A stretch of 64,000 nt of DNA. It comes from Candidatus Oxydemutator sp. (GTDB lineage Bacteria > Pseudomonadota > Gammaproteobacteria > Poriferisulfidales > Oxydemutatoraceae). Of the stretch, positions 4,766 to 19,632 are shown one piece after another. Made by a program: the position numbers and the translations under genes. The stretch lies in the NCBI GenBank assembly GCA_965203445.1, contig OZ241883.1, positions 2,272,001 to 2,336,000 on the forward strand. The letters are read 5' to 3'. Each line of letters starts with the position of its first letter. Position 1 is the first letter of the stretch. The notes beneath the pieces were generated by a model, which saw nothing but the letters and a program-made list of their open reading frames with translations, did not search any database and was not told the DNA's origin.

Positions 4766-5429
4766 TGGCCACGGCCTCGGTGATGCTTTGCAGCGCGGAT
4801 TCGGCGGCGCGTTGCTCGGCCTTGCGCTTCGACGCGCCGCTGCCGCAAGCCTCGAGGCGCAGATCGGAAACCCTGCACGCGACCTCGAAAAACTTCTGGC
4901 CGTCGCGTCTGTGCTCGCACAGCACCTCGTAGATCGGCAATCCGGCGCCGCGCGCCTGCGTGTATTCTTGCAACCTGCTCTTGGCGTCCTTCAGATCATC
5001 ACCGGAAAGCGACGCCAGCGGGCCGGCGAAAAGCGCGCCGACAAAGTCGCGCGCCGCCGCCAAACCGCGTTCCAGATAGAGCGCGCCGATGACGGCTTCG
5101 AGGGCGTCGGCGAGTATCGAGTCGCGCACGCCGTCGCCTTTGTCCTCGCCAGGCCCCAGCACCAGGAACTCGCCCAAGGCGACCGCACGCGCCAATTCGG
5201 ACAAGGTCTCGCCGCGCACCAGGCGCGCACGCAACTTGCTCAAGACGCCCTCATCGGCGTCGGCGAAGCGCGCGTAAAGCAGCTCGGTTACGACCAACTG
5301 CAACACCGCGTCGCCCAGAAACTCGAGACGCTCGTTGTGCGCCGCGCCGGCGCTTCTGTGGGTGACGGCCGCGCGGGACAGCGGCCGTTTCAGAAAATCC
5401 GGATCGAGCAGGTCTGATAGTTTCGGCAT
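4758..5429 (-). CDS. rnc: Ribonuclease III
   Basis: HNERLEFLGDAVL signature, dsRBD DAKSRLQE. Confidence 0.97.
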   Translation of the reverse strand: MPKLSDLLDPDFLKRPLSRAAVTHRSAGAAHNERLEFLGDAVLQLVVTELLYARFADADEGVLSKLRARLVRGETLSELARAVALGEFLVLGPGEDKGDGVRDSILADALEAVIGALYLERGLAAARDFVGALFAGPLASLSGDDLKDAKSRLQEYTQARGAGLPIYEVLCEHRRDGQKFFEVACRVSDLRLEACGSGASKRKAEQRAAESALQSITEAVANV

Positions 5430-6280: not shown

Positions 6281-6398
6281 GCCTGGCGGTGTCCTACTCT
6301 CACACGGGGAGGCCCCGCACTACCATCGGCGATGTGCCGTTTCACTTCCGAGTTCGGAATGGGATCGGGTGGTACCAGCACTCTATGGCCGCCAGGCA
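6281..6398 (-). rRNA. rrf: 5S ribosomal RNA (stand-alone)
   Basis: Minus strand TGCCTGGCGGCCATAG...CCCGATCCCATTCCGAACTCGGAAGTGAAAC...GATGGTAGTG...GAGAGTAGGACACCGCCAGGC. Confidence 0.97.
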
Positions 6399-6544
6399 AA
6401 CCGGTTGTCGCGCGCTTCAATGCGTGGTGGCAATCAGATAATCCAGAAAACCCAGTATCGAGAAAAAGATGAGCGGCGAGATCATGTTCTCCGGAGGCGC
6501 TTTCGTCATCGCAATTCTCGTTTCTGGTTGATCGGTAACCGCCG

Positions 6545-6572
6545 ATTATAGCGCATCAAAAAAACATCGCAA
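6545..6572 (-). promoter_or_regulatory. Sigma70 promoter for the 5S rRNA
   Basis: TTGCGA-N16-TATAAT followed by a GC-rich discriminator (CGGCGG). Confidence 0.65.
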
Positions 6573-6589
6573 AACGGGATGTATGGGCT

Positions 6590-6811
6590 TGTCAAACCGA
6601 AGCACAAATGTCCTATTGTTTCCAAAGCGCAGATGTCCTGTTGTTGGCAGGGCTTAGCGCTTTCATGGTCTCCCCGCCAGCGTCTCCACGGGTGATCCGG
6701 CGCCGGTCTGTGGCCTGAACCGCAGCGCCGCCTGGTTGTCGCCTTATCCACTACAGATGGCAATTGTTTTGCGTCCACTGGCGCCGCCGGTGCCTCGCCC
6801 AGGCGATGCAC
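6590..6811 (-). mobile_element. ISNCY/IS1202-like transposon right-end remnant
   Basis: Residual ORF with a GHRPAPDHPWRR C-terminal motif; end ...TTTGACA preceded by two copies of AGGACATyTGyGCTT. Confidence 0.6.
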
Positions 6812-7172
6812 CTAGTAGGCAGTTCGCGCGTGTTTCAGTTGTTGAGGGATTGGCTATACTGGTGATGCTACGGGAAAGCGATCGCCCTTCGATCCGAGGA
6901 GAAGTTTCAGTTGTTGAGGGACTGGCTATACTGGTGATGCTGCTATCTGCGGGCGCGCGGGCACGGGCAGATCGGGTTTCAGTTGTTGAGGGATTGGCTA
7001 TACTGGTGATGCGCCGCCGCGCGCGAGACCGACGCCGAGGATACCGCATGTTTCAGTTGTTGAGGGATTGGCTATACTGGTGATGCCGAGGGGTACGCGG
7101 GGTAGGCGCTTGCGGACGGGCAGGGTTGTGATACACTTCGCCCGTCACTCTTTGGGATTGGTTATACTGGTT

Positions 7173-7274
7173 TGAGGGCGGTGACGCCATCTTCTGCGGG
7201 TGGCGGAACCGATGGCAGAAGATGTGCAAGCGTCAGGAGACCGTCCTCCTCCTGCAATTTAGTAGCCGCCCTCA
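7173..7274. ncRNA. Putative multibranch structured RNA inside the array insert
   Basis: Stems TGAGGGCGG/CCGCCCTCA, CATCTTCTGC/GCAGAAGATG, CAGGAG/CTCCTG; TATACT box at 7163-7168 just upstream on +. Confidence 0.45.
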
Positions 7275-7604
7275 TTCCTTTTGTTTCGCCCTTTTTCTTT
7301 GGTACAGCAGAATCCCGACGCGGCGCCTGTCAATGTATTCCCACTTCGCGCGCAGCACGGTCACAAACACCGAGCCGTCCTCGTGCTCCTGCGCGACCCC
7401 GAGAATGGGACGCGCCTTGTCCTCGCCTCGGAACACCTTGATATAGTGCCTGCGGTATTCGCCTGGCCACGAATACCAGGCCAGCCACTCCTCGTCGGCA
7501 TCCTTCAGCGTCGGTAAATAGAAGTTTGCGTATCGCTCGCGCCAAGTGCGCCTCCCCTTTTTGCCGACGACGACGTGGGTTGCGCCCCCCCAGCCGAATC
7601 TCAC
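7272..7604 (-). CDS. PBECR2-like nuclease domain (MuF C-terminal toxin-like), probably an N-truncated fragment inside the array
   Basis: RERY..YLPTLKDADEEW...YRRHYIKVF...YIDRRRVGILLYQR pattern; the frame stays open up to the repeat at 7636. Confidence 0.6.
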   Translation of the reverse strand: MRFGWGGATHVVVGKKGRRTWRERYANFYLPTLKDADEEWLAWYSWPGEYRRHYIKVFRGEDKARPILGVAQEHEDGSVFVTVLRAKWEYIDRRRVGILLYQRKRAKQKE

Positions 7605-10600
7605 GCCCCCGGCGGGCTCTCCCCGCGTTTTGATGGTTTCAGTTGTTGAGGGATTGGCTATACTGGTGATGCGGTCGGCGCCGGTGGCGAACCACCAGAA
7701 CTTGCGGTTTCAGTTGTTGAGGGATTGGCTATACTGGTGATGCCGAAATCCAGGGGCGCGTGCTCGCGCCCGACGACGGGTTTCAGTTGTTGAGGGATTG
7801 GCTATACTGGTGATGCAGAGGTTTCCTTTGCCGAGTTGGACAAGCGTTGGGGTTTCAGTTGTTGAGGGATTGGCTATACTGGTGATGCGCTTGTGCCAAC
7901 GCCTGCGCACGCGGCGCATTGATGTTTCAGTTGTTGAGGGATTGGCTATACTGGTGATGCCTTTTGCTCGACGCCCTGCAACATTTCCACGTTCGTTTCA
8001 GTTGTTGAGGGATTGGCTATACTGGTGATGCCGCAGCGCGCCGAAGTTCCGCAGCACCCACTCCACGTTTCAGTTGTTGAGGGATTGGCTATACTGGTGA
8101 TGCCCGGCGCCGGCAGCGCGAGCGGCGGCAGGTCAATCGTTTCAGTTGTTGAGGGATTGGCTATACTGGTGATGCCGACGACGCGCTCTACGACGCGGAG
8201 CTTCATGAGTTTCAGTTGTTGAGGGATTGGCTATACTGGTGATGCGATCGCGCAGATGCCGAAGGCCGACATCTATGGCGTTTCAGTTGTTGAGGGATTG
8301 GCTATACTGGTGATGCCGCAAGGTCAAGACTTCCGCGGCGCATAGCCGACGCCAGGCGCATAGCCGACACGGCTATACTGGTGATGCCGCAAGGTCAAGA
8401 CTTCCGCCCCAGGTTTGTGGATGTTTCAGTTGTTGAGGGATTGGCTATACTGGTGATGCTGTTTGGTGTTGTCGAGCGCGGTGGCAGAACTGGTGTTTCA
8501 GTTGTTGAGGGATTGGCTATACTGGTGATGCATACCCGCCCGGCCAATACCACTATATCCCCGGGTAGTTTCAGTTGTTGAGGGATTGGCTATACTGGTG
8601 ATGCGTCAAGTATGGGCGTTCGACGGCCTCCAGCCTATGTTTCAGTTGTTGAGGGATTGGCTATACTGGTGATGCACGGCGCAGGGGAAAACGCGCCTGA
8701 GGTTATGCCGTGTTTCAGTTGTTGAGGGATTGGCTATACTGGTGATGCGGCGCGCTGACTTTGTTCTTGGTCACCTTCGCGGTTTCAGTTGTTGAGGGAT
8801 TGGCTATACTGGTGATGCTCTCACAAACAGTCTGGCCGCGTTTCACATCCCAGTTTCAGTTGTTGAGGGATTGGCTATACTGGTGATGCCGCGTTGGCCG
8901 ACACCGCCGCGCGTGTGCTCGGCAGTTTCAGTTGTTGAGGGATTGGCTATACTGGTGATGCTGATGAAGGCGATTGTGGACATGAGGCCGGCGCCGTTTC
9001 AGTTGTTGAGGGATTGGCTATACTGGTGATGGCCGCGACTGGCGATCAATGCGTGGCGGGGAAGCCGCGTTTCAGTTGTTGAGGGATTGGCTATACTGGT
9101 GATGCTGGGTGTTCGCCAAATCGAAATACGCGGTCAACGCAGTTTCAGTTGTTGAGGGATTGGCTATACTGGTGATGCGAAGTGATCCGCAAGTTCCCCG
9201 CGCACATGACAAGTTTCAGTTGTTGAGGGATTGGCTATACTGGTGATGCCTCCAGCATGGCTTTCTGTTTCGAGTCCAGCCCGCGTTTCAGTTGTTGAGG
9301 GATTGGCTATACTGGTGATGCAGCTCTACACCTCCGTCGTGGCAAATAATGTCCGGAGTTTCAGTTGTTGAGGGATTGGCTATACTGGTGATGCTCCCGT
9401 GCGCGTTCCGCTGGTCGAAAAGAGGCGGCGTTTCAGTTGTTGAGGGATTGGCTATACTGGTGATGCTGTCGTACACGAGCGACGACGGCGACAAGTTTTA
9501 TCGTTTCAGTTGTTGAGGGATTGGCTATACTGGTGATGCATCCCGACTCGTCCGGCAGTCTTTGGGCTCAGGGGTTTCAGTTGTTGAGGGATTGGCTATA
9601 CTGGTGATGCTGCGCTCGGATGGCTGGCGGCGTCGAAGGTCTTGACGTTTCAGTTGTTGAGGGATTGGCTATACTGGTGATGCGCGGGAGGTGATGACGG
9701 CCCTTTCCGAAAACGTGTAGTTTCAGTTGTTGAGGGATTGGCTATACTGGTGATGCATAAAGCAAGGTGTTGATGAGACTATTAGTTTCGGGTTTCAGTT
9801 GTTGAGGGATTGGCTATACTGGTGATGCAATCTCGAAGTGGACATCGCCGACCTGCTGAACGAGCAGTTTCAGTTGTTGAGGGATTGGCTATACTGGTGA
9901 TGCCGTAGCCGCACAAAGATTAAACAGAAAATGGATGTTTCAGTTGTTGAGGGATTGGCTATACTGGTGATGCCGGCGCCGACCCCGCCCCCGGATCCCG
10001 TCCGCGACCGTTTCAGTTGTTGAGGGATTGGCTATACTGGTGATGCGCTGGACCTTCTGCACGAGGCGGCGGTCGGCGCAGGTTTCAGTTGTTGAGGGAT
10101 TGGCTATACTGGTGATGCGTGATGCGCGCTCTTGACCTCTTCTGCGGCGTCGGGTTTCAGTTGTTGAGGGATTGGCTATACTGGTGATGCTTAGAAGTGA
10201 AACAATTATGGTTCGAGGACGCCAGTTTCAGTTGTTGAGGGATTGGCTATACTGGTGATGCGGACGGCACGGCAATCAGAATAAAAGACGTACCGAGTTT
10301 CAGTTGTTGAGGGATTGGCTATACTGGTGATGCCGGTGATAGAGAGAATCAAGAGGGAGGAAAAGTGAGTTTCAGTTGTTGAGGGATTGGCTATACTGGT
10401 GATGCGGCACGTTTGCAGGCACGACCTTGTCGGCGGCACGTTTCAGTTGTTGAGGGATTGGCTATACTGGTGATGCGCGGCTACGCCGTTCGGCCAGGGC
10501 ACCAGGGTCTGTTTCAGTTGTTGAGGGATTGGCTATACTGGTGATGCCGGGGCCGCCGCCGACGTTCCCTTTGTCTCAACAAGTTTCAGTTGTTGAGGGA

Positions 10601-10691
10601 TTGGCTATACTGGTGATGCAGAAAGGCACGCAGAGTTCAGAGATGCTTATCGCAGTTTCAGTTGTTGAGGGATTGGCTATACTGGTGATGC

Positions 10692-10784
10692 CCCATCCCA
10701 AGCCCTTGTTTTACAAGGGCTTGGGATATTTCACAGGGGGCAGAATTTTCGCAAGTAGAGCTATTGCACCAAAGCACGGCGAAT
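10692..10784. promoter_or_regulatory. CRISPR leader with a long palindrome
   Basis: Lower GC; ATCCCAAGCCCTTGT-TTT-ACAAGGGCTTGGGAT next to the last repeat. Confidence 0.65.
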
Positions 10785-10812
10785 TTGCGAAAAGTAACGA
10801 TTGTGCTACGAT
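10785..10812 (+). promoter_or_regulatory. Promoter of tracrRNA-1
   Basis: TTGCGA-N16-TACGAT with an extended -10 TG. Confidence 0.65.
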
Positions 10813-10819
10813 CATGACT

Positions 10820-10946
10820 CCAGTATAGCCAATTCTTGATACTCTGTAATCATAAAAAAGTATCTTGAACGGACCTCTGCATTTTTGCACGTCTGCCTTC
10901 ACTCGATGAAGGATTAAGAAACCGCCTCCGGGCGGTTTCTTTTTTT
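10820..10946 (+). ncRNA. tracrRNA-1, type II-B (Francisella-like)
   Basis: Anti-repeat CCAGTATAGCCAAT, then CTCTGTAATCAT-AAAAGTAT-TTGAACGGACCTCTG-CACGTCTG resembling the FnCas9 tracrRNA as recalled; ends in a terminator. Confidence 0.85.
10916..10946 (+). terminator. Intrinsic terminator (possibly bidirectional, also serving cas4)
   Basis: AAGAAACCGCC-TCCG-GGCGGTTTCTT plus T-run. Confidence 0.85.
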
Positions 10947-10953
10947 CCGACTC

Positions 10954-11547
10954 TCACAATCGGTCATTACAAAAATTCACGTATTCGCAGGTGCAGCACT
11001 GGGCGACCGTCGCACTCGATTCCGGCTTCAGTCCACGCCGCAGCATCCGCCTGATTTTATCCGCCACCTCTGCAACCAGCCGACGCTTGTCCGCGTCAAT
11101 GTCAATCGTATGCAGAACCTTCCCTTTCCCGACCAAGAATCCGGCCGTGCTCGGCTTGGAAAAATGCTCCTCTAACAGCAAGGCATAAGCCGCCAGTTGC
11201 AGTTGGTCGCCGCGCTTCCCGCGGTTTGCGGAAAGCTTGAACTCGACGGCGTACACCGCCTCGTCGGTTTCCACCGCCATGTCCGCGATGCCATGCAGTC
11301 CCAACGCATCGCTGCGCACCGCCAGATTGTGATGGGTTTTCCCGCTCCGCAAATTGAATCTGGAGAGATTGCGACGCTGCCATAATTTTTCCTCTGCCCG
11401 GTGGAAGTGCTCTCCCTGCCCGACCCAGACGGGGCGATGAAAAGCAACATCGGTCAACTCCATGTAATACACGACCCGCGGGCAGTAGCACCACTGCCGG
11501 ATTAAATTTACCGGAATGCTATATGGCAAGGGTTTCCTCCCAATCAT
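10954..11547 (-). CDS. cas4: CRISPR-associated exonuclease Cas4
   Basis: QWCYCPR, GIAD, VEFK, QLAAYA, CCTCEYVNFC Fe-S cysteines; start may be as far up as 11574. Confidence 0.93.
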   Translation of the reverse strand: MIGRKPLPYSIPVNLIRQWCYCPRVVYYMELTDVAFHRPVWVGQGEHFHRAEEKLWQRRNLSRFNLRSGKTHHNLAVRSDALGLHGIADMAVETDEAVYAVEFKLSANRGKRGDQLQLAAYALLLEEHFSKPSTAGFLVGKGKVLHTIDIDADKRRLVAEVADKIRRMLRRGLKPESSATVAQCCTCEYVNFCNDRL

Positions 11548-11821
11548 GGAAATCGCTCTTTTCGTGGCCGACAAAATAACTCCGCCCCCGCCCGTTGAAG
11601 TTGGTATGCGTAATAAATGCCTTGTCCGCCTGCCCCAGGCTATCGTGCAGGTAGCGTTTAATCGCCTCCAGCTCCGCCAGCGTCAGATACCCCCAAAACA
11701 CCGACTTCTGCACGGCTCTGAGCCCGTGCTTCCCCAACTCCATAAAAACGCGGGCGCGCGTTTTATTGTCTTCCACGTCGTAGCTGACCAGATACTCCTG
11801 CCGCAATGGATAATTCTTCAT
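11519..11821 (-). CDS. cas2: CRISPR-associated Cas2
   Basis: YLVSYDVEDNKTR, VQKSVFWG. Confidence 0.95.
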   Translation of the reverse strand: MKNYPLRQEYLVSYDVEDNKTRARVFMELGKHGLRAVQKSVFWGYLTLAELEAIKRYLHDSLGQADKAFITHTNFNGRGRSYFVGHEKSDFHDWEETLAI

Positions 11822-11830
11822 GCCGCCAAA

Positions 11831-12787
11831 TCACCACTTGAACAAATAAGGCCGATAGTTTTGCTCGCCGTAGAAATGACCGCACAAACGATAAACTTGG
11901 CGCTGGATAATATGTTCCAATTTGTGCTTCTTTCTGCGATACGTGTATTTCTTGGCGCACGTTTTCTGTATTTCCCCTATCAACGCCTTCTTCAGGGCGA
12001 CATCCAGAACCGTTCGCCCCTCGCTGCGGGAGCGCAACTTGACTACGGCGCGATCAACCACCCACGCGCGGTATTCTTCCATGACGTCGAGCACCAGCGC
12101 CATTTTCCCCGGCCGCCGGACGTGCATGACGCCGAGATAAGGCTCCAGCCCGGCGTTGATAATCGCGCTCAGGATATAACTGCTCAACACCGCGTAACCG
12201 AGATTGAGCATGGCGTTGTTGATTTCCCCGCTTCCCCGCCCCTCGCGCCTCGTGAACGAAGCCGAAAACAGCCGCGCTTGCCGCAAACCCTGAAAATAGG
12301 CATTGGCGCCGGCACCCTCGAAACCGAGCAAGGTCTCGAGGTCTCTCGCGTGTGGCGCCTTGTCCGCGTGTGCCCGCAATTCATCGGCGGCGGAGCGCAG
12401 AAACGGATGCCTGTGATATTTGTCGAGATGGTTCAGCACGGCGCGCTGATTTTTCAGTTTTGCGACGACGATCCTCCGCGCCAGCGGCATCGTGTCGCGC
12501 TGGCAAAAAGCCATCTGCGCCTGGCGCACCGCCACCACACCGTGTTGCGACTGTCCCAAAATCGCCGAGTGTGCGACACCGCGAAAATCCAAAAAAAATA
12601 ACTTGATGCCGCGGCTGCTGAAAGCCTCGATCAGATCGCTCGATATGCTGACGCCGCGTTTGGCGATGGAGACGGTGCACAGGCGATTGAGCGGATAGTG
12701 CCTGCTTTCTCCATCCTGCCTGACCACCAAGCGATGGCTGTTCAGCCCCAAAAAAGCCCCATAGTCGCCGATGACAAGGTGTTTCAT
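11831..12787 (-). CDS. cas1: CRISPR-associated endonuclease Cas1
   Basis: LLGFEGAGANAYF, NAMLNLGY, GLEPYLGVMH, LDVMEEYR; 318 aa. Confidence 0.96.
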   Translation of the reverse strand: MKHLVIGDYGAFLGLNSHRLVVRQDGESRHYPLNRLCTVSIAKRGVSISSDLIEAFSSRGIKLFFLDFRGVAHSAILGQSQHGVVAVRQAQMAFCQRDTMPLARRIVVAKLKNQRAVLNHLDKYHRHPFLRSAADELRAHADKAPHARDLETLLGFEGAGANAYFQGLRQARLFSASFTRREGRGSGEINNAMLNLGYAVLSSYILSAIINAGLEPYLGVMHVRRPGKMALVLDVMEEYRAWVVDRAVVKLRSRSEGRTVLDVALKKALIGEIQKTCAKKYTYRRKKHKLEHIIQRQVYRLCGHFYGEQNYRPYLFKW

Positions 12788-12880
12788 GGTGTGATCGTGC
12801 CGGCCAGCCGCGGGCTTGGCCGCGTACTTGACCTGGTCTATAGACCGGTATTATAGTCTATATAACACAGGGAGCAGGCC

Positions 12881-13123
12881 ATGACCAAAGAAAACATCGG
12901 ATCTTACGAGGCGAAAACGAAGCTGCCCGAACTGTTGAGGCGGGTGCAGGCGGGCGAGGCCTTTACGATAACCAGACGTGGCAAGCCCATAGCGGACCTG
13001 CTGCCCAGCCAGGCCGGGGCGCGACAAAAGACGGCGGCCGCCATTGACAACATCGCTGCCATGGGCAAACGGACGGTCTCCGAGCGTCGCCTGAAAGAAT
13101 ATAGAGACAAAGGCCGCGAGTGA
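12881..13123 (+). CDS. Phd/YefM family antitoxin
   Basis: IGSYEAKTKLPELLRRVQAGE.FTITRRGKPIADL. Confidence 0.9.
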   Translation: MTKENIGSYEAKTKLPELLRRVQAGEAFTITRRGKPIADLLPSQAGARQKTAAAIDNIAAMGKRTVSERRLKEYRDKGRE

Positions 13124-13545
13124 CGACCTTCGTGCTGGATAATTCAGTGGCAATGCGTTGGCTGCTCGCAACTCCCAGCCCTTCGGGGCAGAAGTATGCC
13201 GGGAAGGTCCTGCAAAGCATGAAAGACGCGGACGCGCTCGTGCCCGCGCTCTGGCACCTCGAAGCGGCCAATGTCCTGCTCCACGCCGAAAGAGACGGCC
13301 AGATAACGACCGGCCAGGCACAAGCGTTTGTCTCACAACTGAAAAATCTGCCCATTACGATTGATTCACCGACCCAGACAAATTCGGTCGACCGAATTAT
13401 GGCGCTGGCTCGGTCATACAACCTCAGCAGTTACGACGCCGCCTATCTGGAGATTGCCACCCGCAATTCGGTACGGCTCGCCACCCTGGACAGATCGCTG
13501 GCAAAAGCAGCGAGGAAAGCGGGAGTAGGTATCTATCTGAAATAA
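13120..13545 (+). CDS. vapC: VapC/PIN-domain toxin
   Basis: FVLDNSVAMRW, WHLEAANVL, SSYDAAYLE, LATLD; coupled to the antitoxin. Confidence 0.9.
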   Translation: MTTFVLDNSVAMRWLLATPSPSGQKYAGKVLQSMKDADALVPALWHLEAANVLLHAERDGQITTGQAQAFVSQLKNLPITIDSPTQTNSVDRIMALARSYNLSSYDAAYLEIATRNSVRLATLDRSLAKAARKAGVGIYLK

Positions 13546-13561
13546 GAAAGCACCAGTGTGC

Positions 13562-13828
13562 TCAAGTAGTCTTCGCCTTCAGCGGGAACCGCGCAGGATT
13601 TCGGATGATTTCTCTGCTCAGATCAACGTCTATCATCGGCCAGTAATAATGATCCGCAGATAATTGCTCCACTTTAAGGATCGCCTCAACGGGCTGCCCC
13701 TTGAACCAGGGAAAATCCTCGTAGGACAGAAATAACTCCTCATCATGTGCAAGCAGCCATATACCGTGGGTAGATATATGGGTAACTTCAACTTCTGAAG
13801 TAGTCTTTCCAGGCATTGATGAGTTCAT
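13562..13828 (-). CDS. DUF2442 domain protein
   Basis: EVTHISTHGIWL, FLSYEDFPWF, YYWPMIDVDLS, PARFPL. Confidence 0.8.
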   Translation of the reverse strand: MNSSMPGKTTSEVEVTHISTHGIWLLAHDEELFLSYEDFPWFKGQPVEAILKVEQLSADHYYWPMIDVDLSREIIRNPARFPLKAKTT

Positions 13829-16800
13829 TGTGATGGTTCTCTATAGATTTCCAATTCCTTATAACCTATCTCAGTTTCTTCCATCGTTTCATCATCCCTA
13901 AGTGTTGCTCGGGGACCCAGTTTGGTGATAGCCCACGGCCCACTTTTCCCATCAATACGAACCCTATCACCCCGTTTGAATATTTTGAGTATTTTATAAT
14001 TCACTGGAAGTTCTTTATCTATTTCATTTCTTTCATAAACTGGCTGAGACTTATCCTTCCAATAAAACTTATTCGTAATACGAACAGCATCTATTTTATC
14101 TTTTCCATCTTTATTATATTGAATAACCATAACTTTATCCCAAGAAACCGTCCGTCTAAAGTGATGCATGCCTTTTGTATTTTTATCTTTTCTTCGCCAC
14201 ATCTGTTGAACTCCCATGCCCCCTCGGACACCAGGACCCACCCTTACGCAACGAACTGACCGTGTATTCTTGGGGTGTAAAATATGCTCCTGGGGCAGCC
14301 TCAGAAAATAAGAATGCGTAATTGTTCTCTTATCACCGCTTCCATTTGTCATTTCTTTTTTTCTGTCATCCGGCATATCATCGATTTTTTCCCATGCTTT
14401 TTCCATTGCCATCCTGATAGGCTCGGACTGTATATTCCCGATATTCTTTTTTTGAATCTTCTCCAACGGTTTTCTTTGTGTAATCATGCCGTCCAAACAA
14501 CGCAAAGGTTCAGTATCCGTTTTGCTGCATTCGATCTTTCCTTCATTTCTCTTGTCTTCAACATACCAACCCGAAGATTTATCGGGAGCCAACAAATTCC
14601 CTCTGCCGTCTTCTCTTAGATTGATAAAAGCAGGGGCATTTTCCTTCCTTGCCTGCTTACGAACATCACTATTCAAGCGTTTGATCGCTTCCCAATCTAC
14701 ATTTGCTGCCAAGACCACAGCATCAAGGGCATGGTGGAACTCTCTGATGGGATCATCTTTCGCTGGCTCAACAATCACCTTAAACCTTTTCACGGCAATT
14801 TTGGTCTTTATCATAACTTTGATATTCGAGATCTCCCCCGTACTTTTGTCTACAACTTCCACATCGCACCATGGTACATATTTACCATTACCTCTTTTCC
14901 TGTAACACTTCTTCAGTGTCCCAACCAATTTATTACCCTTGACAGATAGCCAATCATTACCTGCTTCCTCATCATTCTTACGATATTTAAGCTTTACAGA
15001 AGCATTAGCACCTTCCAACAATTTACTTAGTTTTTTATCCTTTGAGAAAACATCTTCCAATAACAACTCTAATTCTTGATCAAGCTGTCCTTTTGTCTCA
15101 TAGAGAGTTTCATCTTTCTTTTTTCCACTCGTTTTGCCTTCCTTTACTACTTCAAGGACGAAGTTTTTATTGTTACAGTTCTCTAACCAAAACTGGTTTG
15201 TCCCTACTGCATTATCATCCGGAGTCCCGACAAGCATCACTTTCCCATTATTTTTGTCCGTTCGAATTTCCAGCCAGTCAGTTACCCCTTCATCATAGTC
15301 TTTACAGATAGAAACCTCCCCATCAAATAAATACTCATCCAACTTCAGCTTTGAAAGTTCATATTTGAATTCTTCACCTGCCTTTGTTTTGTATGGATTC
15401 CTAAATCGTATAGCCCGCTTCTGCCGATCCATAAACGGAAACCAGAACCGACGAAGATAAATTGAATCACCTGAACGTATTTTGTGAATCACCTCTGATG
15501 GCAAGTTAAATTCATCCATAAAAGCCTGTTTCAAGAGTTTCGCCCCGAACATGGTGTGCTGTGGGGCAGCAAGCATATCCTCAGGCAGTCTCCTGTCTGC
15601 CTCCAAACGGGATTGAATGAATTTGTGCTTCTCAGGATTATTATTCTCAATCAAAGAAAGGACATTCTTATCCAGAGGCTCCCTCCGGTTGTGCTTATCA
15701 ATATTGCAAATTGAATGACCGATTACTTTATTCCGGGCAATATTTCCCCCACCTTTTGATTTAGGGAACAGATGATCAATATGAGCGTCACTATGCAAAA
15801 ACTCACCACAAAATATGCAACGGCCACCTTGATCCGCCCTAAGCGTGGCCATATCCCCACCCGCCGACTGTTGATACTGTTTCGGCTTGAGCTTCTTCTT
15901 CAGCTTCTTACCTTCACTCTGAGCCAGAGCACTGATATCAAAACGCGCTGTCTCTATACCTACATGTTCAATAGGTATCGGCGAATTTCTGAGGTCTCGT
16001 ACCTCCTGCTCCTTCAACATCTTGCGCACAACAACAGTGATTTTTTCAACTTTCTGCCGTATTGAGGGTGGCGCGTCATCTTTCAATGTTAAAACACGCT
16101 CTTCATGAAGCCTCGCCCATGAATTGCCCTTGGTTTCATCGCGCTCCAAAAGGTTCAGTTTTTGTTCCAGGTGCTTAATACAAAAACCTGCTCTGCCGGG
16201 CTGTTCCCCACAAATAATATCCCTGAGAATATCTTTCTTGCCTCTCGCCTCGTTCTCTGCGGGGAGAACATAGCGATTTCCCCTACTGTTAGTAAAAAAT
16301 TGATTAATAGTTTCCTGATTTTTATTTTTGATAACTCCGTCTAGTTCTTTCACAAACTCCAAACTATTCATCAACTTCTGTATTTCACTCTCATCCAACT
16401 TGTCTTTATTCCCATTGGCACGCCTCACATTCATTTGACGCAACTCAATTTCAAACTGAAGTCTGCGAACGTCTTTCCTGCGCTTTTTAGGGAGATTAAG
16501 TCCGCAACGTGTTCCATCATCGTCAGTAGCTGCCGGGCATTTGCCCATGCTATTGCGGTTGTTGAATCTTTTCTTGCGATATTCACGATTGACTACCTTT
16601 GTTGCTGCCTTAATCCATCGCTTTTTTATTTCTGTAGGGGTAGTACCTGCTCTATGAGCGATTTCACTGGCCTTATTATGAACATCCGCCATTGATTGTT
16701 GCCAATCCTGTTTTATTTTGGCCATAGACAAGATCTGTCTGTTCTGATTGACTTTGCTTTTCTTCAAACCCTGGAAGGTTTCATCCAGGCAAATTTGAAA

Positions 16801-17790
16801 GCGATCCTGCTCCAAGCCACAGGCGACTTTCATCAGGTTTTCCAACCCGCTTAGCATTTCCTCACGATGGCGATTACGATGTGGACGATAAACTTTGCCT
16901 TCCTCAAAAAGCTTCTCACCTGTTTGTAGGCCAAGCATAGTCATAATGCGAGTAACAATTTCTTCTTCCTGAGGTATGGTACTTCCAGCCCCATAGACCA
17001 AACCAAGGCGTTCTTTGATCCAGCTCTTTATATCCTCTGGCACAGCATCTTGAAGTTTTATTTCCAGTGCCTCATAAACCACTTCCTGCCTGGCAAGCTC
17101 CTCCATGACTGAAGAATCTTTTTCGGCTTTTTTTCTGAGATCGTGAATCTCTTTAGCTTTCTCATAAAGCTCACCCAGGCAGCTCCGTTCCTCTTTTATT
17201 TTTATAAAGGAAACAGTTTTGTCAGAAAATTTTTGAGACTCACTATGCCTTGAACGCCTGTTGAATTCTTGTCTTGCGTTGTCTTGGGCTTGTTTGTATT
17301 CCTCGTCTGATTCATTCTTGTATTTCCTACGCCCTTTCTCGTTAAATTCCGCGGGCGCATTAAATTCCTGAAGAAGAATCCTGTCAACTTCTTTAACTAT
17401 TAGAGGGCATTTAGGAGATTTACCATCATCAGTTTTGACAACGAGCAATTCAAGCAAGCTCGCATAGTCCCATCCACGATAATGGGCTAGCGCATAAAGG
17501 CGGTTTCCAAGAGAAGCCTTATCTCTCTCAGTCTGTTTCTCCCCCGGTTTCGCATTTCTTGGCTCCAACCCCATGCCTTTAAGAAGCGCATAGAAGTCGC
17601 GTAGCCGCCTCGCCTTGGAAAGTTTCCGCCTGCGTTGTCCCCTGTTGACGCGACGTTTTTGGAGAGTATCCGATAGCGTAGTGCGATGTTTGAGAACTTT
17701 ATAATCCAGGACTTCATTACTTGAACTCAACAAGCCAACGCCTGTATATGCGTAACCGAAGTCAATCCCTAATCTGAAGGACTTATTCAT
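13825..17790 (-). CDS. cas9: Type II CRISPR effector Cas9 (Cas9d/II-D-like core with large insertions), ~1321 aa
   Basis: RuvC-I LGIDFG..YTG, Arg-rich bridge helix, RuvC-II GIETARFD, HNH GRCIFCG..HIDHLFP..CN..K, RuvC-III HHALDA; ATG 17790 with AGGTGG RBS. Confidence 0.9.
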   Translation of the reverse strand: MNKSFRLGIDFGYAYTGVGLLSSSNEVLDYKVLKHRTTLSDTLQKRRVNRGQRRRKLSKARRLRDFYALLKGMGLEPRNAKPGEKQTERDKASLGNRLYALAHYRGWDYASLLELLVVKTDDGKSPKCPLIVKEVDRILLQEFNAPAEFNEKGRRKYKNESDEEYKQAQDNARQEFNRRSRHSESQKFSDKTVSFIKIKEERSCLGELYEKAKEIHDLRKKAEKDSSVMEELARQEVVYEALEIKLQDAVPEDIKSWIKERLGLVYGAGSTIPQEEEIVTRIMTMLGLQTGEKLFEEGKVYRPHRNRHREEMLSGLENLMKVACGLEQDRFQICLDETFQGLKKSKVNQNRQILSMAKIKQDWQQSMADVHNKASEIAHRAGTTPTEIKKRWIKAATKVVNREYRKKRFNNRNSMGKCPAATDDDGTRCGLNLPKKRRKDVRRLQFEIELRQMNVRRANGNKDKLDESEIQKLMNSLEFVKELDGVIKNKNQETINQFFTNSRGNRYVLPAENEARGKKDILRDIICGEQPGRAGFCIKHLEQKLNLLERDETKGNSWARLHEERVLTLKDDAPPSIRQKVEKITVVVRKMLKEQEVRDLRNSPIPIEHVGIETARFDISALAQSEGKKLKKKLKPKQYQQSAGGDMATLRADQGGRCIFCGEFLHSDAHIDHLFPKSKGGGNIARNKVIGHSICNIDKHNRREPLDKNVLSLIENNNPEKHKFIQSRLEADRRLPEDMLAAPQHTMFGAKLLKQAFMDEFNLPSEVIHKIRSGDSIYLRRFWFPFMDRQKRAIRFRNPYKTKAGEEFKYELSKLKLDEYLFDGEVSICKDYDEGVTDWLEIRTDKNNGKVMLVGTPDDNAVGTNQFWLENCNNKNFVLEVVKEGKTSGKKKDETLYETKGQLDQELELLLEDVFSKDKKLSKLLEGANASVKLKYRKNDEEAGNDWLSVKGNKLVGTLKKCYRKRGNGKYVPWCDVEVVDKSTGEISNIKVMIKTKIAVKRFKVIVEPAKDDPIREFHHALDAVVLAANVDWEAIKRLNSDVRKQARKENAPAFINLREDGRGNLLAPDKSSGWYVEDKRNEGKIECSKTDTEPLRCLDGMITQRKPLEKIQKKNIGNIQSEPIRMAMEKAWEKIDDMPDDRKKEMTNGSGDKRTITHSYFLRLPQEHILHPKNTRSVRCVRVGPGVRGGMGVQQMWRRKDKNTKGMHHFRRTVSWDKVMVIQYNKDGKDKIDAVRITNKFYWKDKSQPVYERNEIDKELPVNYKILKIFKRGDRVRIDGKSGPWAITKLGPRATLRDDETMEETEIGYKELEIYREPSQ

Positions 17791-17804
17791 AACCCACCTG
17801 AATG

Positions 17805-17939
17805 TAAAACAATACCCTGCATAAAGCAGGGTATTGTAGATTTTGCTCGCCCTCAAGCGGTGACTTACTGAAAACAGAGCATCGCCTGCAAAAAACGATG
17901 GTGCCAGCAAGCACCTCGGACTTTTTTCAGTTGTTGAGG
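17805..17939 (-). ncRNA. tracrRNA-2 candidate upstream of cas9
   Basis: 15-nt perfect anti-repeat CCTCAACAACTGAAA (17925-17939), several hairpins, terminator ACAATACCCTGC/GCAGGGTATTGT followed by TTT. Confidence 0.75.
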
Positions 17940-17943
17940 CCTG

Positions 17944-17971
17944 ATTGTAACGACGAAGAAAAAACTGTCAA
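17944..17971 (-). promoter_or_regulatory. Promoter of tracrRNA-2/cas9
   Basis: TTGACA-N16-TACAAT directly upstream of the anti-repeat. Confidence 0.8.
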
Positions 17972-17987
17972 GCCCTGATGTGTTGTT

Positions 17988-18638
17988 CTACATTGGCGTC
18001 GCAGGGGTTGCGAAGTCGTCGTCGTAGAAATAGTGTCCCTTCAGCCGTTTGACGTTGAAAATGAGTATTTCGCTATGGAACAGTATGCCGTCGAACACGT
18101 TCTTCGGGAGGCTGATTATCGAGCATATCTCGGGATAAGTGCCGTCTACAAACTTGATCCAGCGCCTCGATTGTTGCGTCTGGTTCAGGCGCAATCCGTA
18201 AGGGGTGAACAGCACAATCGGGATGCTTTTGCCGAACAGTTCTATCGCTTTTTGCAGCCACACTTCCGGCAGCAATGGCCTGCCACCATAATTTTCTACC
18301 AGATGCGCTTTCGTCTTCGGGTCAATGTTGAACGGGGGGTTCATTATCACGAGGCCAGGCTCCTTCAGCTCTCCCTTCTTTACCTTCAGATAATTCCTGA
18401 CCCGCGTCCTCGGAAAACCCTGCTTTTCTATATCAATGCCGACAACGTCAAACCCGTTCTCCTCGAAAGGCCGCAGCAACGAACCCTCGCCCACGCACGG
18501 GTCGAGCACCGGCTTCGACTTGTCAATGCGCTTGCCGACCAGTTCATACAGGAACCGGCTGACACCTTCCGGCGTCTGTATCGTGGATTTCTTTTGTCGG
18601 TTGTAAAAATTATTGCGATCAACTCTGTACATCGTCAT
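17988..18638 (-). CDS. Solitary N6-adenine DNA methyltransferase
   Basis: VLDPCVGEG (motif I) and MNPPF (motif IV); GGAGGAG RBS. Confidence 0.8.
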   Translation of the reverse strand: MTMYRVDRNNFYNRQKKSTIQTPEGVSRFLYELVGKRIDKSKPVLDPCVGEGSLLRPFEENGFDVVGIDIEKQGFPRTRVRNYLKVKKGELKEPGLVIMNPPFNIDPKTKAHLVENYGGRPLLPEVWLQKAIELFGKSIPIVLFTPYGLRLNQTQQSRRWIKFVDGTYPEICSIISLPKNVFDGILFHSEILIFNVKRLKGHYFYDDDFATPATPM

Positions 18639-19632
18639 CAACTCCTCCGATTGTATTCCTTCGCCCGCTCCCCCACAAACTCCGAATCGCCGCGATTCCG
18701 TGGCCGCCGTGATGTCGGCATTGTGCCAAATCTTCCGGGCCAAGGCCGCCCAATCCGTACACCGGCATCGGCGCGTCTTGCACCAGCGTCGCAAAAGCAT
18801 CCCATCCCAATCCGCGCGCGCCGGGGTGTCCCGGCGTCTCCCGCACCGGTCCCAGCACCGCGAAGTCGGCGTCGAGCGAGGCCGCCGTTTTCAGTTCGTC
18901 CGCGTTGTGGCACGAGGCGCCAAACCAACGGCCCGCGGCCACCGGGCGACGGCGGCAGCGTCGCAATGCGGCGGCGCTCAGGTGCACGCCGGCGGCACCG
19001 GCGCCCGGGTGCGCAAGCAATGCGGGGTCGCGGTCGTGCAGCAGGACGCGCGCATGAAAAGCAGCGGCATCAGTCGCCATGCGACGAGCCAGTTCCTCGT
19101 AATCGTCGTCGTCCAGGCGATTGTCCCTGAACACGGCGAGGCGCACGCCGCGTTCCAGCGCGCGGCGGAAGCATTGCAGAAAGCGCGCGGGGTGTTCGAC
19201 GTTCGGGGTGATCAGGTAGCGGTCGGGAAGCCTCAGCGCGTTGATCATGGCGCGGCTTGCGGGCGGAAAGTCCGGCGCGCGCAGGGCCTCGATTTTCGTC
19301 CAGCGCAAGTCGTTGTCGCCGGCCAGGCGCGGGGCGCCGTCGAAGTCGCGCACCGTGAACACGTGAAAACGCAGGCGGCGCTCCCGGTAGCGCCACGGAA
19401 ATTGAATCAGGGGTTCGGAATTGCGCGCGACGACGCCGGTTTCTTCCTTCAGTTCGCGGGCAAGCGCCCGCTCGGGGGATTCGCCCGGCTCGATCTTGCC
19501 GCCGGGAAACTCGCGCAGGCCGCCCTGATGAACTTCGGGACGGCGCACAGAGGTCAGAACGGAGTCGGCGCGTCGCACCAGGCCGATTGCGATGGAGATC
19601 ACGGGGAATGGATCGGAGTCGGGCAAGAACAA
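18619..19632 (-). CDS. mutT: MutT Nudix hydrolase fused to a thiamine-phosphate-synthase-like domain
   Basis: EFPGGKIEPGE..ALARELKEETG; ASCHNADEL, PVYGLGG; start may be GTG 19602. Confidence 0.85.
   Translation of the reverse strand: MFLPDSDPFPVISIAIGLVRRADSVLTSVRRPEVHQGGLREFPGGKIEPGESPERALARELKEETGVVARNSEPLIQFPWRYRERRLRFHVFTVRDFDGAPRLAGDNDLRWTKIEALRAPDFPPASRAMINALRLPDRYLITPNVEHPARFLQCFRRALERGVRLAVFRDNRLDDDDYEELARRMATDAAAFHARVLLHDRDPALLAHPGAGAAGVHLSAAALRRCRRRPVAAGRWFGASCHNADELKTAASLDADFAVLGPVRETPGHPGARGLGWDAFATLVQDAPMPVYGLGGLGPEDLAQCRHHGGHGIAAIRSLWGSGRRNTIGGVDDDVQS

Follow-up and report, generated by a model that had tools for sequence, protein, structure and literature searches.

Which Cas9 serves a CRISPR array when the repeats, the adaptation genes and one trans-activating CRISPR RNA (tracrRNA) belong to one subtype and the cas9 gene beside them belongs to another lineage? 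This question is raised by a locus at positions 6832–17971 of a 64,000-nt stretch of the Candidatus Oxydemutator sp. genome (assembly GCA_965203445.1, contig OZ241883.1, positions 2,272,001 to 2,336,000 of the forward strand; the whole stretch is called the window below). A sequence-only reading had described the locus as a hybrid in which a Cas9d-like effector replaced, or shared the array of, the Cas9 of a type II-B system, and had listed cas9, a DUF2442 gene, cas1-cas2-cas4, a 46-repeat array and two anti-repeat RNAs, all of which we located between these positions (Table 1). With RuvC motifs and an HNH domain in its effector, an array of 46 repeats and two anti-repeat RNAs, the locus is a type II system. 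We consider it likely that, in this Oxydemutatoraceae genome, a Csx12-type cas9 and a DUF4160 gene of a II-B locus were replaced by a cassette of ∼4.15 kb (∼13845–17995). This cassette would have brought a strong promoter, a second tracrRNA gene, named tracr-B here, and, as the new effector, a Cas9 of 1321 aa from a rare Cas9d-related clade. The architecture that would result, a II-B locus now running on a Cas9d-related effector with its own tracrRNA, is well supported; that it also functions in this way is plausible.

The array, the array-proximal tracrRNA gene (tracr-A), cas1-cas2-cas4 and the DUF2442 gene are of the II-B kind, i.e. of the Cas9/Csx12 type of Francisella novicida, Legionella and Parasutterella. 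On the plus strand, the 37-nt repeat GTTTCAGTTGTTGAGGGATTGGCTATACTGGTGATGC was matched 46 times between 6832 and 10691, 44 times exactly and twice with one mismatch, and not once in shuffled sequence (n = 100); its spacers are ∼35 nt long, 43 of the 45 intervals measuring 33–38 nt. The core of tracr-A, used as a DNA pattern on a collection with one genome per species, matched 22 stretches. In all 22 loci cas4 adjoins the RNA, and cas1 is visible in each of the 19 that reach that far; every repeat is 37 nt long, starts with GTTTCAGT (GTTTCA) as does that of the window, and recurs with a period of 71–73 nt, so that repeat length and period in the window match those of the 22 Csx12-linked arrays. 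Cas9/Csx12 (TIGR03031) is encoded in 22 of the 22 genomes, above the curated cut-off in 21 and in pieces in one, and three effector open reading frames (ORFs) next to the II-B module, when checked directly, gave 414–487 bits with TIGR03031 and a match to PF21069.

Like its relatives, tracr-A lies between cas4 and the array. Its transcript would extend over ∼10819–10948 and begin with a 14-nt anti-repeat (10820–10833) that is perfect to repeat nt 18–31, and imperfect pairing reaches the first base of the repeat (39 nt at 74%). An extended −10 element, TGCTACGAT (10804–10812), was spotted by eye and is kept across the alignment of the 22 related tracrRNAs; a strong terminator (10916–10941) is followed by a T run. 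The Rfam model FtrA (Francisella sRNA A), which we take to be the Francisella tracrRNA, was matched over its whole length (model positions 1–111) with 41.4 bits and an E-value of 6e-5 on a 271-nt stretch, a score below the gathering score of 134. The window's RNA aligns with all 22 from the −10 box through the terminator and has no signs of decay, and the Francisella-type II-B layout recognized in the earlier reading is thereby borne out. The proteins agree: Cas1 is 62–83% identical to the full-length Cas1 of 14 Csx12 loci (83% to the closest), and Cas4 is 54–76% identical to the Cas4 of such loci. In maximum-likelihood trees, midpoint-rooted only and poorly resolved, Cas1 (15 rows) and Cas4 (22 rows) nest among Csx12-linked sequences on short branches. 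DUF2442 copies of 66–69% identity lie directly upstream of cas1 in five II-B loci, four of which have a DUF4160 partner beside them that the window lacks. DUF4160 and DUF2442 thus seem to be paired as a recurring accessory in this II-B clade, and the window retains DUF2442 alone. In loci with both genes, the two are found between csx12 and cas1, with DUF4160 overlapping DUF2442 at its start (L024:3653–3892, minus strand; also in L016, L017 and L019).

The effector, in contrast, is not of the II-B kind. The protein matched neither TIGR03031 nor PF21069, and a TIGR03031 search of the complete 2.38-Mb genome at E ≤ 10 returned no match; the second II-B cas9 for which the sequence-only reading had advised a search is thus missing, the genome's other cas9 being II-C-like (see below). 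The Pfam matches of the effector were RRXRR (PF14239, 32 bits against a cut-off of 25) and HNH. Its only NCBIfam matches were Cas9d (NF049971, 114.3 bits, cut-off 375) and IscB (NF040563, 60.6 bits, cut-off 175), both under threshold. With NF049971, five other members of its family scored 101–132 bits, and the proteins P0046, P0081 and P0100 scored 408–470 bits. The best sequence matches in the PDB were six Cas9d entries, at E ∼1e-21 with the single sequence and at 1e-55 to 1e-64 with a profile of 25 family sequences, and no FnCas9 entry was among the family-profile matches at E ≤ 10. Likewise, hhalign aligned the effector family over 729 columns (100%, E 7.5e-60) with five relatives of compact or middle size, among them three that score above the Cas9d cut-off; against 12 Csx12 sequences it gave 59%, an E-value of 9e-5 and 294 columns restricted to the RuvC-II/HNH region.

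A Cas9 tree of 35 sequences and 653 columns, made with a quick method and rooted on two IscB sequences, gave 100% support to three clades, namely the effector family, the II-B sequences and the Csn1 sequences; how these three and two Cas9d groups branch from one another was not resolved. Cas9 thus falls outside the II-B clade and Cas1 and Cas4 fall among Csx12-linked proteins, which is the outcome that the hybrid proposal had predicted for separate phylogenies. Taken together, these comparisons give good support to an effector related to Cas9d and do not show it to be a member of Cas9d. The earlier assignment to Cas9d rather than FnCas9 therefore needs to be narrowed: PDB matches, hhalign and fold all favour Cas9d, but the NF049971 cut-off is missed and the tree does not distinguish a sister of Cas9d from a lineage within it.

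The fold was compared with an AlphaFold model of residues 1–1200 (predicted local distance difference test score 79, predicted template modelling score 0.55). The top two Foldseek matches, 9lgi (titled type II-D) and 9k32 (titled NbaCas9), are both Cas9d structures, and 9k32 is also among the Cas9d-type PDB sequence matches of the effector; II-C and II-A Cas9s came next, and PsCas9 was at rank 21. Among 25 family members the RuvC (D10, E613, H1020, D1023) and HNH (D672, H673, N696) residues are invariant or nearly so, and C418, C429, C537, C658, C661 and C695, which form putative zinc-ribbon cysteine motifs, are invariant. The effector has two large insertions relative to a compact Cas9d. A helical one of ∼240 aa (∼residues 115–355) follows the bridge helix, where a 747-aa Cas9d has ∼17 residues, and a beta-rich one of ∼200 aa (∼residues 800–1010) precedes RuvC-III and is missing from the 1095-aa family member of genome G057.

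Upstream of cas9 and on the same strand lies tracr-B. A promoter with the sequence TTGACA-16-TACAAT (17971–17944, minus strand) fits the consensus at 11 of 12 positions and is the best site of the region. It is followed by an anti-repeat (minus strand, 17939–17925) of 15 nt that is perfect to repeat nt 2–16, and by terminator-like hairpins at 17915–17900 and 17837–17809, the latter of which, with its T run, directly precedes the ribosome-binding site of cas9. The element folds with z = −4.5 relative to shuffled sequence. A promoter and a terminator had been assigned to each of the two anti-repeat RNAs; sites were found for both, but the promoter scan as a whole was not enriched over shuffles (11 observed, 10.8 expected), so that it is position and conservation that underlie the promoter assignments. 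In G057, a counterpart lies directly upstream of the cas9 homologue, again on the same strand, and is arranged as in the window: GGCTTGACA is followed by a −10 box, next comes an anti-repeat, and the motif TGAAAAAA-N-TCC-N-AGG is last; its anti-repeat can pair with 11 nt at the 5′ end of G057's own, different repeat. Since the anti-repeat tracks the local repeat while position and neighbouring motifs are kept, tracr-B is predicted to be the cognate tracrRNA of the effector, and this is the main reason for our assignment. The perfect 15-nt anti-repeat further suggests that tracr-B was recently fitted to the window's repeat, or came from a locus whose repeat has the same 5′ end. The tracr-B motif was found nowhere else in the window's genome and in none of the other loci fetched, and in 17 of 18 csx12 loci checked the 1.5 kb upstream of csx12 contain no anti-repeat. 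The exception, G049 (L044, plus strand, ∼position 748), has, ∼730 nt upstream of csx12, a sequence complementary to nt 1–14 of the locus's repeat; this may be an element resembling a small CRISPR-Cas-associated RNA (scaRNA) or a second anti-repeat element.

Close strains either lack the cassette or have a very different one. Logan contigs of four sequencing runs were placed on positions 6401–19000 with a minimum identity of 88%. In run X1, a contig of 9619 nt covered 10663–19000 without differences and with even depth across both junctions, and a simple chimera of assembly is thereby excluded. Three further studies, two with the labels sponge and marine metagenome, were the source of runs X3, X6 and X8, which covered 10655–13844, i.e. 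tracr-A, cas4, cas2, cas1, a toxin-antitoxin pair and DUF2442, as well as 17996–19000, at ∼95–97% identity. Their depth was zero over nearly all of 13961–17740 (zero or trace for cas9 and tracr-B), the sole exception being a short GC-rich match near 14866–14897 that is apparently unrelated. One X3 contig (2659 nt) lies on 13594–13844 and then continues for 2408 nt unlike the window, and one X6 contig (906 nt) lies on 17996–18507 and has 394 nt more that are unlike it. These breaks delimit cas9 plus tracr-B, ∼13845–17995, as the variable segment. At the II-B loci, likeness to the window upstream of DUF2442 stops ∼16 nt before its ATG, at the place where those loci carry DUF4160. With Cas1 and Cas4 nested among Csx12-linked proteins, and siblings sharing the flanks and neither cas9 nor the RNA upstream of it, the proposed replacement of a II-B Cas9 is supported. 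Within the tracr-A anti-repeat, four positions differ between the sibling strains and the window, which suggests that repeat and anti-repeat changed together, those strains' repeats being only partly visible. A short gene resembling N6-adenine methyltransferases (17988–18635, minus strand) adjoins the cassette junction; homologues of 72–77% identity occur in G003 and G017 at other genome positions.

The effector clade is rare and unnamed, and its proteins are 1095–1499 aa long. A search with residues 1–1200 against 1.84 billion representative proteins returned 27 clusters at E ≤ 1e-30 with full-length members of 1095–1359 aa; below them came a gap and then compact proteins of 700–774 aa at E 1e-15 or weaker. 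A word-indexed search found 23 relatives of 37–56% identity, the longest having 1499 aa; their sources are ENA, Logan or JGI, none is from NCBI/UniRef and none is named. Large proteins named Cas9d may exist, as an Atlas cluster with a 1293-aa representative bears the automatic name 'Cas9d family'; this is a lead only. Pattern searches with family alignments found no relatives in genomes, in metagenomes (two scans) or in viral contigs, and tblastn of the effector against plasmids gave zero matches. The family was present in none of 40 sampled relatives, in one of 126 genomes of G057's order (G057 itself) and in one of 400 genomes of the window's class (the window's own genome; one genome was unscored). 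Among the 22 II-B genomes only G057 had a member (E 3.6e-126), ten other matches being at HNH level. The G057 gene stands alone between housekeeping genes with no cas1, cas2 or cas4 nearby. It is accompanied by a mini-array of seven repeats with a different 36-nt repeat (GTTTCACTTACCCC…) and 30-nt spacers, and a separate II-B locus of G057 retains its own Csx12. A solitary copy of this repeat that differs at one position (L065:7040–7071, i.e. G057:C1:1553040–1553071) lies ∼1.2 kb from the mini-array, past a gene for a cyclic nucleotide (cNMP)-binding protein.

If the replacement took place as we think, the array would be transcribed from the plus strand, and the 5′ end of the repeat (nt 2–16) would pair with the 5′ end of tracr-B. 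RNase III, whose gene lies at window positions 4785–5396, would cut the duplex, and the Cas9d-like protein, with its RuvC and HNH residues intact, would be guided by CRISPR RNA (crRNA):tracr-B to cut DNA beside a protospacer-adjacent motif (PAM). The resident II-B Cas1, Cas2 and Cas4 would supply new spacers. The partner RNA of the lost Csx12, tracr-A, may be a recent leftover or may act in pre-crRNA processing or adaptation. More tentatively, promoter, tracr-B and large cas9d-like gene might constitute a self-contained, exchangeable cassette that lives alone with a mini-array, as in G057, or displaces a resident Cas9 and takes over its array and adaptation genes by means of an anti-repeat copied from the host repeat. 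If this were true, tracr-B would be a recently formed natural tracrRNA, and the locus would document an effector take-over between Cas9 subtypes that is still polymorphic in one population.

Several observations weigh against the replacement as just described. The retention of tracr-A is unexplained: it is intact, pairs with the repeat more strongly than tracr-B (−32.1 versus −24.2 kcal/mol) and overlaps the repeat nucleotides of tracr-B, so that the two would compete. The terminator-like hairpin between the tracr-B promoter and cas9 requires read-through or an unseen promoter. The case for a cognate tracr-B is built on two loci only, and in one of them, G057, the counterpart folds no better than shuffled sequence (z = +0.8). 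None of the RNA runs searched for the stretch carried it. In the sibling strains, the occupant of the cassette site could be csx12 or an allele of the window's gene less than 88% identical. Genomic context was read for two of the ∼27 family clusters (the window and G057), so that the hybrid layout may be unique or common. Finally, cas9 had been called visibly more AT-rich than cas1-cas2-cas4, and the difference is real (GC content at third codon positions 0.41 for cas9, 0.51 for DUF2442 and 0.69–0.72 for cas1, cas2 and cas4; genome GC 0.636). It is not diagnostic of a foreign origin, and we dropped it as a decisive sign, since ordinary II-B loci have the same tendency, csx12 lying up to 0.25 below its own cas1 (e.g. 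in G053 and G055).

Some of these points would be accommodated if the locus were an old and stable hybrid subtype, in which the large Cas9d-like clade, or a subclade 52–57% identical, normally goes with II-B adaptation modules, II-B repeats and two tracrRNAs and works by the same mechanism. A tracr-A without decay and a tracr-B anti-repeat that fits the repeat perfectly would be expected then, and the family contexts read are those of the window and G057 only. We nevertheless regard this as unlikely: the G057 gene is stand-alone with a different 36-nt repeat and no adjacent cas1, cas2 or cas4, and the II-B locus of the same genome keeps its Csx12; Csx12 accompanies tracr-A-type RNAs in all 22 loci; and sibling strains at ∼95–97% identity are without the window's cas9 sequence. 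Rather improbable in our view is a recombinant that does not function, its effector being unable to use the crRNAs or its old spacers unfit for the new PAM, with array and tracr-A as recent fossils. Exchange between dual RNA and Cas9 is reportedly functional only between closely related Cas9s. An array broken by a 549-nt insertion and a rearranged repeat, together with RNA runs that lack the stretch, would fit such a fossil. On the other hand, 44 of the 46 repeats have no mismatch, every cas ORF is open, the effector retains its catalytic residues, and a perfect 15-nt anti-repeat exactly at the predicted transcript start would arise by chance with a frequency of ∼1e-4 in the window (a rough estimate). 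The published exchange tests of dual RNA and Cas9, in the part of the source available to us, cover orthologous type II systems (PMC3936727).

A different division of labour, in which the effector uses tracr-A, alone or together with tracr-B, and the upstream element is the cas9 promoter and 5′ leader with a regulatory anti-repeat (pre-crRNA sensing or autorepression), would explain why tracr-A is intact and forms the stronger hybrid and why the upstream RNA continues into the cas9 ribosome-binding site; stand-alone repeat-like regulatory RNAs are known in cas loci, at least from the portion of the report at hand (PMC10120712). It is very unlikely in our estimation. The tracr-A scaffold is conserved alongside Csx12 in each of the 22 genomes, Csx12 can be aligned with the effector only marginally, the locus of the G057 homologue has no tracr-A-type RNA (the pattern matched the G057 record once, at its II-B locus), and the upstream element is conserved together with the effector. 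A metagenome misassembly that joined a cas9 cassette to a II-B module, finally, is hardly credible, even though the genome, like its relatives' records, is apparently metagenome-assembled and cas9 differs in composition from its neighbours. The X1 contig, made by a different assembler (Logan), spans both junctions without differences, and the stop codon of cas9 overlaps the start of DUF2442 in frame; as X1 is possibly the source sample, it counts as an independent assembly and not as an independent sample. We therefore retain replacement of a II-B effector by a Cas9d-related cassette as the preferred explanation.

How does such a locus compare with known systems? As a general principle, modules are shuffled in the evolution of CRISPR-Cas systems, and the window, with the adaptation module and array of one subtype and the effector of another lineage, is in keeping with it. 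IscB is a transposon-borne ancestor of Cas9, and its omega-RNA lies upstream of iscB; likewise, in the window a scaffold RNA directly precedes the nuclease gene on the same strand, and the effector shares the RRXRR/RuvC-HNH core and the weak NF040563 match. IscB differs in its size of ∼400–500 aa and in having neither a CRISPR array nor adaptation genes, and the effector misses its cut-off. The likeness to II-B comprises the cas1-cas2-cas4 module, repeat, spacers, tracr-A and DUF2442; the effector that is not Csx12, the second tracrRNA gene upstream of cas9 and the lack of DUF4160 set the window apart. Type II-D, the group of MG34-1, MG102-2 and NsCas9d (PMC9755519; PMC11706934; PMC12339737), contains the effector's nearest relatives in sequence, profile and fold, with which it shares the RRXRR domain, cysteine pairs around RuvC-II/HNH, and the RuvC and HNH motifs. 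At 1321 aa the effector exceeds the ∼600–970 aa given for Cas9d in the accessible part of one paper (PMC11706934), as well as the ∼600–1050 aa and much reduced recognition (REC) lobe that define the compact type; it also stays under the NF049971 cut-off, which three compact or mid-size relatives pass, and carries large insertions and an adaptation module common with Csx12 loci. Many II-D loci, so far as the available excerpts go, consist of a stand-alone cas9 and an array without cas1 or cas2 (PMC11706934; bioRxiv 10.64898/2026.08.17.745286), and the G057 gene with its mini-array resembles these. Other II-D loci have a cas1-cas2-cas4 module common to them, with a Cas1 that, according to the part of the source consulted, is monophyletic (PMC12669027). 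The window's Cas1 groups with Csx12-linked Cas1. No description of a hybrid turned up in papers that name 'type II-B', 'type II-D' and 'Cas9' together, and within type II our literature search found no replacement of Csx12 by a Cas9d-like protein with both tracrRNAs kept. The claim of an undescribed hybrid thus stands as far as this literature search, its sole basis, extends.

The genome is complete in one contig. Three of 18 family mates searched have Csx12 loci and none of the 18 has a Cas9d-like protein; three genus mates searched have neither. The II-B loci of G006, G010 and G017 do not lie beside homologues of the Nudix/ThiE or methyltransferase genes that flank the window's locus, so that the ancestral state cannot be read from synteny. 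A second type II system lies ∼820 kb away (G000:C1:1459782–1466706, G000 being the window's genome). It has a 1034-aa, II-C-like Cas9 of the Csn1 type (TIGR01865, 655 bits), beside which an ORF of 298 aa takes the place of cas1; its array has a 66-nt period and a 36-nt repeat (GTTGTGAATTGCGG…) that is unrelated to that of the window. This second system should leave our reading of the window locus unaffected.

Two intervals of the array are odd. The 549-nt insertion contains, at ∼7153–7169, a degenerate repeat-like remnant (GGGATTGGTTATACTGG), and its 110-aa ORF has a PBECR2 domain of nuclease fold (Barnase/EndoU/RelE-like; Pfam PF18810, E 5.2e-12). In a rearranged stretch of 106 nt (8317–8422), the first 20 nt of one spacer are duplicated, a 14-nt direct repeat (GGCGCATAGCCGAC) occurs twice, and one repeat is reduced to its 3′ 17 nt. 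The genome holds no other copies of the repeat with up to six mismatches, and blastn of the whole array against a phage collection yielded no protospacer. The first 23 nt of spacer 9 (7961–7994; 34 nt) match the host chromosome exactly (G000:C1:138431–138453, E 7e-7); this is the sole notable self-match within the genome, and the repeat-proximal 11 nt are unmatched. A 19-nt similarity between another spacer (9754–9772) and the tracr-B terminator was discarded as compatible with chance (∼0.5 expected, by a rough estimate). The array adjoins a 5S rRNA gene (6281–6396, minus strand; 102 bits) that is apparently unlinked to an rRNA operon, the array occupying the position where an upstream 23S gene would be expected.

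Between DUF2442 and cas1, a toxin-antitoxin pair has inserted that is also present in the sibling-strain contigs; tblastn of both proteins against the 22 related II-B loci gave no match. The earlier name vapBC needs qualification: a small antitoxin gene comes first and overlaps that of a PIN toxin by 4 nt, as in VapBC, but the antitoxin is of the Phd/YefM family and neither of the AbrB nor of the MetJ type, and the pair is thus not a classical VapB-VapC.

Table 1. Coordinates of the locus components in the window.
Feature	Position	Strand	Remarks
CRISPR array, block 1	6832–7086	+	4 repeats of 37 nt
Insertion splitting the array	7087–7635		549 nt; 110-aa ORF at 7272–7604, − strand
CRISPR array, main block	7636–10691	+	42 repeats and a 5′-truncated 47th repeat at 8371–8387
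tracr-A, II-B (Francisella-type) tracrRNA gene	10804–10948	+	Rfam FtrA; alignment with 22 II-B tracrRNAs
cas4	10954–11574	−	PF01930; TIGR00372 at 97.5 bits
cas2	11519–11821	−	PF09827; TIGR01573
cas1	11831–12787	−	PF01867 at 207 bits
Phd/YefM antitoxin gene	12881–13123	+	PF02604
PIN-domain toxin gene	13120–13545	+	PF01850
DUF2442 gene	13562–13828	−	PF10387; ATG overlaps cas9 stop (ATGA)
cas9, large Cas9d-related clade	13825–17790	−	1321 aa counted from MNKSF; listed ORF starts at upstream TTG, 17910
tracr-B, predicted	17800–17971	−	Promoter, 15-nt anti-repeat, hairpins, terminator-like hairpin

The effector and its relatives form a rare clade of 1.1–1.5-kaa Cas9d relatives, smaller than the large Cas9s and larger than compact Cas9d. 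Recent mining, to judge from the available part of the preprint, filtered candidates to 400–1000 aa (bioRxiv 10.64898/2026.08.17.745286), a size range in which such large relatives would be missed. They bear on how protein domains replaced RNA scaffold in Cas9 evolution, and nucleases that recognize new PAMs and need only a short tracrRNA could be obtained from them. If the replacement reading holds, the locus shows that Cas9 nucleases are exchangeable between systems in nature. It would then be a natural experiment on how freely a Cas9 can be exchanged between arrays and adaptation modules, on the birth or retuning of a tracrRNA anti-repeat, and on the fate of an old tracrRNA after its effector is lost.

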